Shown here one piece after another: positions 7,318 through 8,112 of a stretch of DNA of 10,036 nt; the stretch's first letter is position 1, and each line of letters starts with the position of its first letter. A program made the position numbers and the translations under genes. The stretch lies in the IMG/VR virus record IMGVR_UViG_2609459830_000016; one strand, written 5' to 3'. Source of the stretch: a virus. Lineage: Duplodnaviria; Heunggongvirae; Uroviricota; Caudoviricetes. The notes below the pieces were generated by a model, which saw only the letters and a list, made by a program, of their open reading frames with translations, had not been told where the DNA came from and ran no database searches.

Positions 7318-7926
7318 TTACAGCCGTTCAGAACGTAAATGCGTCAATACTCGACTCCACTTATCATCCTGCCACGGCCGGAATTTTACATGTGCCGTTT
7401 CTCTGGCAAGGATTGCCTGTGCCTTATTGAGTATCCGGGGATATTCTTGTTCGATTGAAGTGAAGCGACCGGCTTCGCGGTGTTCTGCTACCTGAAGAAG
7501 CGGAGTGACGTTTTGGCAAGCGGTTAACATTGTGTCACTTGCCCGCCATAACCAAGCAAGTGTGCAAAGTTCGTTATCAGTGAATTGTTTTGTGATTGGG
7601 GATTGTTGAATTTCTCGATCGAGAATATCCAGCACCCAGCGGCGGAATTCTTTGGCCACAGGAGTGCGGGCGAACATGGCGATCAGATGGGCGCCACGGA
7701 GGGAGAAAATGCGAGTCTTCTTACGATAATTTCCTGAGGTCGTTGATTCGACGACCTGAGACATTCCGTCAGTAAACTCATCAATATTTTTGTTGTAGAT
7801 GTCGGTTACTGCTTTGGTGCTGGCATATTTTAATGCTGCCGCCAATTCTTTGCTGGTAAACCAGATCTGGTTGTTGTGATTTATAGGAGTGAATTTTACA
7901 TCGCGGAATGCGAGCTGAGTGACCAT
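7318..7926 (-). CDS. Bro-N domain protein (phage antirepressor-like / KilA-N-related N-terminal domain) with uncharacterised C-terminal domain
   Basis: The N-terminal region (IWFTSKELAAALKY ... RIFSLRGAHLIAMFARTPVAKEFRRWVLDIL) matches the Bro-N signature as recalled. The start at 7926 is chosen because an intrinsic terminator at 8090-8112 lies inside the longer track ORF (7318-8163); the ATG at 8061 is an alternative start. The RBS is weak for both. Confidence 0.65.
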   Translation of the reverse strand: MVTQLAFRDVKFTPINHNNQIWFTSKELAAALKYASTKAVTDIYNKNIDEFTDGMSQVVESTTSGNYRKKTRIFSLRGAHLIAMFARTPVAKEFRRWVLDILDREIQQSPITKQFTDNELCTLAWLWRASDTMLTACQNVTPLLQVAEHREAGRFTSIEQEYPRILNKAQAILARETAHVKFRPWQDDKWSRVLTHLRSERL

Positions 7927-8089
7927 AGCGATAATCTCGTTTTGAATTTGAGCTATCACCACCGACGACGCCAATCGACTGGTGGTGGACTGTGCAAGGT
8001 TGGCGTAACCGGTCAAAACGAAATCCGGCGCTTCCGAAGAAGCCCTCACACAGCCCACCATAATTTTTGTGTAGACGTGCACTGCGCAT

Positions 8090-8112
8090 AAAAAAACCGC
8101 GAACGCGGTTAT
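8090..8112 (-). terminator. Intrinsic terminator on the minus strand (early-operon tR-like) upstream of the Bro-N gene
   Basis: Minus strand reads aaccgc-gttc-gcggtt followed by TTTTTTT (plus-strand A-run at 8090-8096). Confidence 0.6.

Follow-up and report, generated by a model that had tools for sequence, protein, structure and literature searches.

A lambdoid prophage antirepressor gene behind a two-RNA leader: a probable cassette of the isrK/C4 type

Phage P22 keeps its antirepressor Ant off in lysogens partly by the antisense RNA sar, and the heteroimmunity of phages P1 and P7 follows a logic in which specificity shifts by co-variation of RNA loops and their targets. For P1, two sources describe Ant synthesis as repressed by c4 (PMC8546580, PMC8198154), and RNase P processing of C4 is known for P1/P7 only (cited in PMC2190699). 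Profiles for C4 and isrK also detect relatives of P4 CI and seqA beside genes of the Bro network (PMC10111431). Experiments on the isrK-orf45-anrP cassette of the Salmonella prophage Gifsy-1 revealed activation by IsrK in trans, a processed RNA of ~80 nt and induction driven by AnrP (Hershko-Shalev et al. 2016, PMC4825925). A knock-out of ant in phage phi24B brought late-promoter induction down to ~30% (PMC3064807).

Here we analyze an antirepressor-type gene, ant, in a stretch of 10,036 nucleotides from a caudoviricete virus record (IMGVR_UViG_2609459830_000016), referred to as the window. The gene lies in a lambdoid prophage of EHEC O26/O103/O157, between the replication gene P and ninB, with Q ~3.4 kb further downstream. 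The 240 nt that precede the ant ATG at 7926 are a known two-RNA leader consisting of a promoter, IsrK and C4 (Table 1), a segment that RefSeq leaves without annotation ('none' under match). The order isrK-C4-antirepressor recurs in 12/12 phage loci that were fetched, including Gifsy-1, P27 and phi24B. We consider it highly probable, at roughly 0.82, that the locus is an RNA-controlled antirepressor cassette of the isrK/C4 type in a lambdoid prophage, in which C4 would hold Ant off and IsrK would enable it. The leader type is widespread and already described, and the locus is no new kind: it is an unannotated but ordinary case of a known system.

Table 1. Features of the ant cassette, in window coordinates.
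Feature	Position	Strand	Description
Sigma-70 promoter P_isrK (predicted)	8171..8200	-	-35 TTGACG 8200-8195, 18-nt spacer, -10 TATATT 8176-8171
IsrK-type sRNA (a1b1 / seqA-like target element)	8090..8162	-	two 5' hairpins, linker, own intrinsic terminator
b1 site GAUUGGCGUC	8132..8141	-	in IsrK, on the loop of hairpin 2; complement of C4 b'
a1 site UCAAAACGA	8116..8124	-	IsrK linker; exact complement of C4 a' loop
IsrK intrinsic terminator	8090..8110	-	6-bp stem, 4-nt loop, U7; 3' end of the Rfam isrK model
C4 antisense RNA	7978..8065	-	closing stem, UUCG-capped hairpin; a' loop 8024-8013; b' segment 8007-7999
uORF homologue	7927..8061	-	45 codons; start at conserved AAUUAUGG, 5' end of C4
b2 site GAUUGGCGUC	7967..7976	-	immediately 3' of C4; same 10-mer as b1
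Conserved GGUGGUGA	7956..7963	-	could pair with C4 3' arm instead of closing stem, b2 then in loop (tentative)
a2 site UUCAAAACGAGAUU	7933..7946	-	-20 to -7 of ATG 7926, over the Shine-Dalgarno position; complementary to C4 a' loop
ant	7318..7926	-	202 aa; Bro-N aa 15-101, P22_AR_C aa 111-181

Both RNAs match their Rfam families over the full model and far beyond chance in the window: IsrK reaches 64.1 bits with RF01394 (gathering score 50, E 3e-12) and C4 reaches 82.5 bits with RF01695 (gathering score 45, E 2e-15). The c4-a1b1 model RF03163 scores 40.6 bits over 8177-8125, which is under its gathering score of 46.7. IsrK folds into three hairpins, and its fold alone is no better than those of shuffled sequences (z = -1.1). 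C4, which starts after a 24-nt spacer 3' of IsrK on the read-through transcript, folds at -42.4 kcal/mol (z = -5.0), with a long, tRNA-like closing stem followed by CCA; its region is equivalent to the STnc1160/'orf45' region of Gifsy-1. Directly upstream of IsrK and heading the whole unit, P_isrK is a predicted sigma-70 promoter and the best promoter match in the window (10/12), from which a transcription start at ~8164 would follow. Its -35 box, spacer length and -10 box are kept in Gifsy-1, P27, phi24B, IdasGreatGrand and PhiR26_1 (six aligned loci), and in Gifsy-1 transcription of anrP is abolished by deletion of the isrK promoter (280 Miller units with it, 3 without; PMC4825925).

The preliminary description had placed the gene directly behind a strong intrinsic terminator that lies inside the longest ORF. 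The terminator is indeed present at 8110-8090 on the minus strand, where the hairpin AACCGC-GUUC-GCGGUU (8110-8095, 6 pairs, 4 of them G-C) runs into a U7 run at 8096-8090, two U of which lie within the stem. It falls within the mechanical ORF TTG 8163..7318 of 281 aa, and hairpin and U7 are the end of the known sRNA IsrK. 'Strong' overstates it because the stem is short (-12.5 kcal/mol when folded in context), and in Gifsy-1 part of the transcripts read through the homologous terminator (PMC4825925). The gene does lie downstream, but after a gap of 164 nt that is occupied by the C4 RNA gene.

The two RNAs and the ant leader are linked by short complementary sites. The b 10-mer is present at two places in the window, b1 and b2, where 0.01 would be expected, and the a 9-mer with its complement three times (a1, a2 and a') against 0.15 expected. 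Pairing of a2 with the C4 a' loop is calculated at -12.4 kcal/mol; the b1/b' pairing comes to -10.3 kcal/mol and the a1/a' pairing to -10.1 kcal/mol, both being specific to cognate partners and covarying. Across 11 distinct phage loci, Gifsy-1 and phi24B included, the a and b sites covary, and in four lineages the b site covaries at three places, b1 changing together with b' in L006, L008, L011 and L012. The a' loop of C4 pairs with the cognate ant leader at a mean of -11.6 kcal/mol and with non-cognate leaders at -6.3 kcal/mol; for IsrK the corresponding means are -10.8 and -6.8 kcal/mol, and in both comparisons the cognate partner ranks first in 10/11 loci. In all 11 loci the cognate a2 falls within -21 to +12 relative to the start codon of the antirepressor. 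The b1/b' pairing corresponds to the G28/G31-C162/C159 pairs of Gifsy-1, which were proven by compensatory mutation (PMC4825925).

The covarying a1 is the 9-mer in the IsrK linker; the loop of the first IsrK hairpin (CAAAAUC), which is 'a1' by the Rfam motif name, was rejected as it has no covariation with the variable C4 loop in lambdoid loci. Downstream of C4, the alternative hairpin formed by GGUGGUGA is predicted in 11/11 loci, with a covarying change in phi24B, and we tentatively suggest that this segment may compete with the closing stem for the C4 3' arm. Pairing of the segment with the start region of ant, the other option, is weak, and the fold of the ant leader alone is no better than shuffles (z = -1.4). 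A consensus hairpin that would sequester the ant AUG had weak support, with one covarying pair, and was set aside.

The encoded protein is of the antirepressor type, as had been proposed from its Bro-N domain (PF02498, 52.2 bits, gathering score 25.6). Its C-terminal ~100 aa, previously described as of no recognized family, turn out to be P22_AR_C (PF10548, 61.6 bits, gathering score 22.4). Among the PHROGs, 'anti-repressor Ant' families match at 1e-55 (phrog_245) and 7e-44 (phrog_5060). The orthologue in IdasGreatGrand is 78% identical and begins at the same Met. Identity is 31% over 54 aa to Gifsy-1 AnrP, an ORF6N protein, and 19% to phi24B Ant; given this low identity and the different domains, the target of Ant could differ. 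A PADLOC search with Ant gave no match, and a PDB sequence search gave nothing meaningful, so that no relative of solved structure is detectable by sequence.

All functional steps at this locus rest on homology. By sequence and homology, P_isrK would start a transcript whose first 75 nt form IsrK, ending at its own terminator, and a read-through transcript would continue through C4 to ant. The a' and b' segments of C4 are complementary to two sets of sites, a1 and b1 within IsrK and b2 and a2 within the ant leader. Judging from P1/P7 immI and P4 CI, RNase P probably releases C4 from the transcript, and C4 bound to b2 and a2 would block ribosome entry at ant, keeping Ant off in the lysogen. The Gifsy-1 data suggest that short IsrK could compete for the C4 segment, because it has the same a and b sites, and remodel the read-through mRNA; translation might then be possible from AUG 8061 and/or AUG 7926, with Ant as the product. 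Family annotation together with the genetics of Gifsy-1 and phi24B points to a protein that would inactivate a prophage repressor and promote induction; the resident repressor belongs to the S24 family (WP_000858975.1). In Gifsy-1, constitutive STnc1160/orf45 RNA enhanced IsrK toxicity and gave no relief (PMC4825925), which argues against a simple model of C4 as repressor and IsrK as its sponge.

Where the gene starts and what gates it can be read in other ways. The in-frame ATGs of the 281-codon ORF are those at 8061 and 7926, rightly singled out in the preliminary description as the realistic starts and as lacking a good ribosome-binding site: the RefSeq CDS WP_001415151.1 begins at 7926, position 8061 corresponds to the AUG(+107) of Gifsy-1 orf45, which is translated (PMC4825925), and neither carries a GGAGG-type Shine-Dalgarno sequence (upstream sequences ACACAAAAAUU-AUG and AACGAGAUUAUCGCU-AUG). 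The long frame could nevertheless be real, encoding 247 aa from ATG 8061 or 281 aa from TTG 8163, with hairpin and U7 being incidental or an intragenic attenuator. We regard this as unlikely, although no stop interrupts the frame between 8163 and 7318, ATG 8061 has its translated homologue, and in the window and four other loci the uORF frame reaches ant without a stop, so that an N-terminally extended Ant isoform is possible. TTG 8163 was rejected as a start, since it falls on the inferred start of transcription, inside IsrK. Codons 1-79 of the long ORF lie under two Rfam RNAs, which together with the RefSeq start bears out the earlier view that the longest ORF is not the real gene, and Pfam finds no domain in the N-terminal extension. 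The closest relatives (88-90% nucleotide identity) differ by 2 nt in the a' loop, which shifts the frame and ends the uORF after 36 codons, whereas Ant still begins at the same Met. Among all loci the uORF ranges from 8 to 64 aa or is fused, and since it is variable or frameshifted among relatives, what is conserved in the upstream 'coding' region is the RNA. The sole local peculiarity of the cassette is that its uORF continues in frame into ant without a stop. The overlap of the uORF stop with the antirepressor AUG, a coupling feature of Gifsy-1, is absent here; as uORF layout varies widely in the family, this overlap is no universal feature. We also give little credence to the idea that the fusion lets the switch select between a 247- and a 202-aa Ant, and that IsrK and C4 also cross-regulate antirepressors between prophages. 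A long form would then start at AUG 8061 and a short form at AUG 7926, and as cleavage by RNase P at the foot of the C4 stem would fall beside AUG 8061, the 247-aa form would arise from unprocessed mRNA only. If true, a two-isoform Ant would be the lambdoid counterpart of the P1 Ant1/Ant2 pair. Cross-regulation might occur because many EHEC genomes contain 2-7 isrK/C4 cassettes, most of which have the same b code.

Alternatively, the terminator might end an upstream transcript and ant might be expressed from a cryptic promoter in 8090-7926 or by N/Q-type antitermination of the early right operon. The cassette does lie in the early-right/nin region and shares the orientation of P, ninB and Q, so that antiterminated PR transcription during lytic growth would plausibly read across the IsrK terminator and give ant a second route of expression, and the authors of the phi24B study put ant expression soon after induction (PMC3064807). 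We still judge this explanation quite improbable as the main gate. A cryptic promoter was rejected, as a scan of 8090-7926 detected no promoter-like site and the interval is the C4 gene; the conserved promoter sits upstream of the terminator, all measured anrP transcription in Gifsy-1 comes from the isrK promoter (PMC4825925), and the covarying a and b sites are not explained by protein antitermination. The earlier proposal of gated expression thus stands as to gating at and after the terminator, but the gate would be the RNA cassette of promoter, IsrK and C4 and not a cryptic promoter or, primarily, protein antitermination. A further proposal had ant act together with the neighboring HEPN-like pair, the HEPN gene and its 133-aa partner forming with ant one three-gene system such as an induction or abortive-infection switch. 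The three genes are adjacent and on the same strand in one segment that is, as described, bounded by repeats (direct repeat 6021-6182 / 8343-8504, 81% identity), the stretch from ant to the HEPN gene has no predicted terminator, and cassette and pair co-occur in about 172-190 E. coli genomes. However, all E. coli copies are at least 99% identical and represent one clonal prophage, and the co-occurrence is therefore without independent weight. In other phages cassette and pair are each found without the other: IdasGreatGrand and PhiR26_1 carry an orthologous ant cassette between the same repeats with other downstream cargo, and in Klebsiella phage Kp4864-1 the HEPN pair sits in the nin region while isrK, C4 and ant are all missing. 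A 299-nt gap also separates ant from the HEPN gene. On these comparative grounds the three-gene unit was rejected, and we consider it very improbable.

The isrK/C4 cassette, our preferred reading, belongs to a common type: relatives of the leader are present in 2383/5426 complete E. coli genomes (44%), a single genome carrying as many as 7. The leader is at times turned by gene callers into spurious N-terminal extensions or small 'hypothetical proteins'. The practical value of its recognition thus lies in annotation, where it gives the correct start of ant. In addition, the leader offers a model, open to experiment, of how prophage induction could be controlled independently of RecA in EHEC with Stx phages that have the same leader.

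Compared with isrK-orf45-anrP of Gifsy-1 (PMC4825925), the leader can be aligned from the promoter through the start codon. Both have the -35 and -10 boxes, IsrK with its own leaky terminator and, ~25 nt further on, C4/STnc1160. In both, b1 and b' are complementary at the positions proven by experiment, AAUUAUGG contains the uORF AUG, and an antirepressor-type gene follows immediately. They differ in cargo, which is Bro-N plus P22_AR_C here and the ORF6N protein AnrP in Gifsy-1, and in the uORF, which here stays in frame with ant without a stop and in Gifsy-1 ends in an AUGA overlap. The a-site specificity sequence differs as well, no isrJ follows downstream, and the position between P and ninB contrasts with that of the Gifsy-1 cassette immediately downstream of antQ.

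The immI loci of P1/P7 (a1b1/a2b2, icd, ant1/ant2) and the CI/seqA/seqC system of P4 share with our locus a C4-family RNA (RF01695) on the same transcript as its target, two short loops of which pair with one upstream and one downstream target set. As in immI, the downstream set (b2 and a2) overlaps the place where translation begins on the first ORF ahead of the antirepressor. Unlike immI, our locus has no icd and no separate ORF between C4 and ant; a small P1-like ORF at this place is found only in a Yersinia phage locus (L006). The upstream target element here ends in its own terminator, unlike that of P1/P7, and would therefore also exist as a free sRNA. The lambdoid context separates the locus from P1 and P4, and Ant is unrelated to P1 Ant1/2 in domain content as far as tested.

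P22 Ant is likewise an antirepressor with a P22_AR_C domain (Pfam). Its regulator sar is a cis-antisense RNA outside the C4/IsrK family, and P22 also departs from our locus in its regulators (Mnt/Arc) and in the N-terminal domain. The ant genes of the Stx phages phi24B and P27 differ in their ORF6N N-terminal domain, in place of Bro-N, and in their a and b codes; they share with our locus the isrK-C4 leader, the position in the nin region and the C-terminal P22_AR_C domain.

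Read on the minus strand, the window spans the early-right/nin-to-lysis part of a lambdoid prophage. A prophage in E. coli O26:H11 str. 11368 shares its sequence at 100% identity, as do about 172 further complete genomes (O26, O103, O111, some O157). RefSeq lists the antirepressor-type gene ant as WP_001415151.1, a 'P22AR C-terminal domain-containing protein' of 202 aa starting at ATG 7926, with no annotation in the 240 nt upstream, and PHROGs assigns its product to 'anti-repressor Ant' families. The Bro-N domain recognised in the preliminary description is present (52 bits), and the C-terminal part, for which no family had been named, is P22_AR_C (61.6 bits). 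In the same segment, on the plus strand, Q and the lysis genes are separated by an OmpC-family porin gene (2857-3939), a typical lysogenic-conversion moron; no terminator of the window is stronger than the bidirectional one that follows it (15-bp stem, 3955-3987). A plus-strand gene (8679-9026) located between P and the ant cassette has as its product a VCH_CASS14-like 'integron cassette protein' (PF18315, 72 bits). The equivalent slot of PhiR26_1 (fetched locus L004, 456-1958) holds the defence gene PD-lambda-1, and the slot looks like a variable accessory or defence site.

Features of the ant leader and its surroundings, in whole-stretch coordinates
Feature	Position	Strand	Remarks
Replication protein P	9953-9231	minus	
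Sigma-70-like site	8200-8171	minus	TTGACG-18-nt spacer-TATATT; best such site in window
isrK (RF01394)	8162-8090	minus	Rfam 64.1 bits, E 3e-12
b1	8141-8132	minus	GAUUGGCGUC in loop of IsrK hairpin 2
a1	8124-8116	minus	exact 9-nt complement of a', in IsrK linker
C4 antisense RNA (RF01695)	8065-7978	minus	Rfam 82.5 bits, E 2e-15
a'	8021-8013	minus	variable loop of C4, UCGUUUUGA
b'			second C4 segment, ACGCCAA; complementary to GAUUGGCGUC (b1, b2)
b2	7976-7967	minus	GAUUGGCGUC immediately 3' of C4
a2	7945-7937	minus	exact 9-nt complement of a'; -19 to -11 of ATG 7926
HEPN-domain gene and partner	6222-7018	minus	138 aa; overlapping 133-aa partner of no recognised family
ninB/ybcN	6000-5545	minus	
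rusA		minus	between ninB/ybcN and Q in gene order
Q	4525-4127	minus	lysis genes follow

Upstream of ant, the terminator reported earlier was found on the minus strand as the hairpin AACCGC-GUUC-GCGGUU (8110-8095) with U7 (8096-8090), and it does lie within a long ORF, a mechanical one of 281 codons from TTG 8163. In a scan against Rfam, two full-length matches on the ant strand, isrK and C4, exceed their gathering scores; the 3' end of the isrK match coincides exactly with the terminator. The c4-a1b1 family (RF03163), which overlaps IsrK, stays below its gathering score (40.6 bits versus 46.7). The sigma-70-like site is directly upstream of isrK and, by alignment with Gifsy-1, puts the start of transcription near 8164. 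This rules out TTG 8163 as a start codon, and codons 1-79 of the long ORF belong to RNA genes. Folded by itself, C4 reaches -42.4 kcal/mol (z = -5.0); the whole leader has z = -4.2.

Loop-loop interactions were judged by duplex energies and covariation. For the 9-mer of a' together with its complement the window has three occurrences where 0.15 would be expected, and for GAUUGGCGUC two where 0.01 would be expected. The a2 site lies on the ant initiation region, where the extended a'/a2 duplex spans -20 to -7 of ATG 7926 (-12.4 kcal/mol); in every one of 11 distinct loci a2 falls within -21 to +12 relative to the start codon of the antirepressor. Across these loci the a' loop differs in almost every case and its targets change in step: against the ant leader, mean duplex energies are -11.6 kcal/mol for cognate and -6.3 for non-cognate pairs, and against IsrK -10.8 and -6.8, the cognate target being the best of 11 in 10/11 rows for each. 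At the b site four independent variant codes show concerted change at b1, b' and b2. This target-site logic is the same as that for which P1/P7 c4 and P4 CI are known. An invariant GGUGGUGA (7956-7963, minus strand), 13 nt after C4, can also pair with the C4 3' arm UCACCACC (7978-7990, minus strand), replacing the C4 closing stem and putting b2 into the loop of a hairpin built like IsrK hairpin 2. The alternative hairpin is predicted in all 11 loci, with a covarying change in phi24B, and could act as a structural switch that either lets C4 form or exposes the uORF.

The two in-frame ATGs of the preliminary description, at 8061 and 7926, indeed both lack a canonical Shine-Dalgarno sequence upstream. 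From ATG 8061 an uninterrupted uORF frame of 45 codons leads into ATG 7926. The nearest relatives (leader identity 88-90%) have an a' loop shorter by 2 nt, which shifts the frame, and there the uORF ends 18 nt ahead of ant. Ant of these relatives (78% identical) keeps the same start Met despite this shift, and 7926 is therefore the conserved start. By analogy with the orf45 of Gifsy-1, ATG 8061 may be used in addition, which would give an N-terminally extended protein, not termination and re-initiation. Across the surveyed loci the uORF has 8, 15, 31, 35, 36, 45 or 64 codons or enters the antirepressor in frame, in agreement with the observation of the Gifsy-1 authors that orf45 is conserved in nucleotide and not in amino-acid sequence (PMC4825925); the in-frame uORF is the one local peculiarity here and is probably incidental. 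The C4 closing stem begins at the U of AUG 8061 (AAUUA-UGG; 8061-8065, minus strand), and the C4 3' side is followed by a tRNA-like CCA. In P1/P7, RNase P cuts at the equivalent C4 site. A similar cut at 8061-8065 would destroy the uORF start codon, in which case a mature C4 and a translated uORF would exclude one another.

The comparison covered 12 diverse fetched loci (Gifsy-1, IdasGreatGrand, PhiR26_1, P27, phi24B, cdtI, Yersinia, Enterobacter, Salmonella and other phages), and relatives of the leader were counted with blastn. In every one of the 12, isrK is followed about 25 nt on by C4 and then by an antirepressor-type gene. The antirepressor of the window, like those of its two nearest relatives, combines Bro-N with P22_AR_C, and those of P27 and phi24B combine ORF6N with P22_AR_C; Gifsy-1 AnrP carries ORF6N, other loci Phage_pRha, and two more Bro-N with another C-terminus. 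Since this cargo varies, the conserved unit is the RNA leader, with a modular antirepressor behind it. In Yersinia phage vB_YpM_39 (L006, 1495-3064) a 63-aa ORF separates C4 from a 380-aa ORF6N + pRha protein, recalling the c4-icd-ant layout of P1, and immediately upstream, on the opposite strand, there is a ryfA RNA match (135 bits). GenBank records of several phages turn the leader into spurious N-terminal extensions of antirepressors, such as cdtI orf44 and sal3 gp057 (L009, L010, L013), or into strings of 30-40-aa 'hypothetical proteins' (small CDSs of L003 and L005).

Relatives of the leader occur in 249 phage records, mostly Stx1/Stx2-converting phages, and in 2383/5426 complete E. coli genomes (44%), with up to 7 copies per genome; 93 copies are plasmid-borne, and RefSeq annotates nothing beneath the relatives in these genomes. 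Genomes carrying this window hold 2-5 isrK-C4 leader copies each. Because most E. coli relatives share the b code and differ in the a code, cross-talk between co-resident prophages via leader RNAs is conceivable.

The preliminary description had also suggested that ant, the neighbouring HEPN gene and its partner may act together as three genes within a repeat-bounded module. The 162-nt direct repeat (6021-6182/8343-8504, 81%) is real, and homologous repeats flank the ant cassette and its cargo in IdasGreatGrand (L003, 2259/4262) and PhiR26_1 (L004, 2267/4201). These repeats measure about 105-160 nt and include the beginning of a small ORF (MRTYNPNS...), and their placement around the ant cassette and differing cargo of three phages points to a recombination boundary at which the module may be exchanged. 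The three-gene unit is unsupported. The cargo between ant and the distal repeat differs per phage, being the HEPN pair here and other ORFs in IdasGreatGrand and PhiR26_1. Conversely, the nin region of Klebsiella phage Kp4864-1 (L015, 2495-3300) has the HEPN gene and partner with the same overlap (65% nt identity), and none of isrK, C4 or ant beside them. Co-occurrence in E. coli, a check proposed earlier, has no independent weight, since neither segment has a copy below 99% identity and the copies thus represent one prophage lineage. The HEPN gene and partner are conserved together as a pair that looks like an independent moron, possibly of toxin-antitoxin or defence type; a weak PADLOC match (E 1.8e-7) links the HEPN protein to the candidate defence family PDC-M28A, and both proteins belong to PHROGs of unknown function.

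For the control of ant, known relatives offer a model. Following P1/P7, C4 would be excised and would pair with b2 and a2, blocking ribosome binding and keeping Ant off in the lysogen. Following Gifsy-1, accumulating short IsrK, with the same a and b sites, would compete for the C4 segment and remodel the mRNA so that Ant is translated; genetics of Gifsy-1 and phi24B suggest that Ant would then antagonise a prophage repressor and promote induction. Of the antitermination proposed earlier, one part may stand, as antiterminated PR transcription would also cross the cassette in lytic growth.

The system itself is already known: both RNAs are Rfam families, C4 and isrK profiles have been linked with Bro-network genes before (PMC10111431), and the Gifsy-1 homologue has been dissected experimentally. 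There, Hershko-Shalev et al. found that the isrK promoter drives anrP transcription via partial read-through of the IsrK terminator, that the read-through mRNA is translationally silent, and that short IsrK in trans activates translation of the 45-codon uORF and, by coupling, of anrP, whose product induces Gifsy-1 (PMC4825925). The uORF region is processed into a stable RNA of about 80 nt, STnc1160, and IsrK G28/G31 pair with C162/C159 (PMC4825925). Counted on the Gifsy-1 sequence, G28 and G31 fall in b1 and C159 and C162 in b' of the Rfam C4 match; C4 has at its 5' end a conserved AAUUAUGG, whose AUG is the orf45 AUG(+107) and corresponds to ATG 8061 here. A simple model of C4 as repressor and IsrK as decoy may be incomplete, because constitutive STnc1160 enhanced IsrK toxicity in Gifsy-1 and did not relieve it (PMC4825925). 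The locus is an uncharacterised, unannotated member of this isrK/C4 system, useful chiefly in annotation and as a model of prophage induction under RNA control in EHEC, and it differs from Gifsy-1 in its antirepressor cargo and in a uORF that is in frame with ant.
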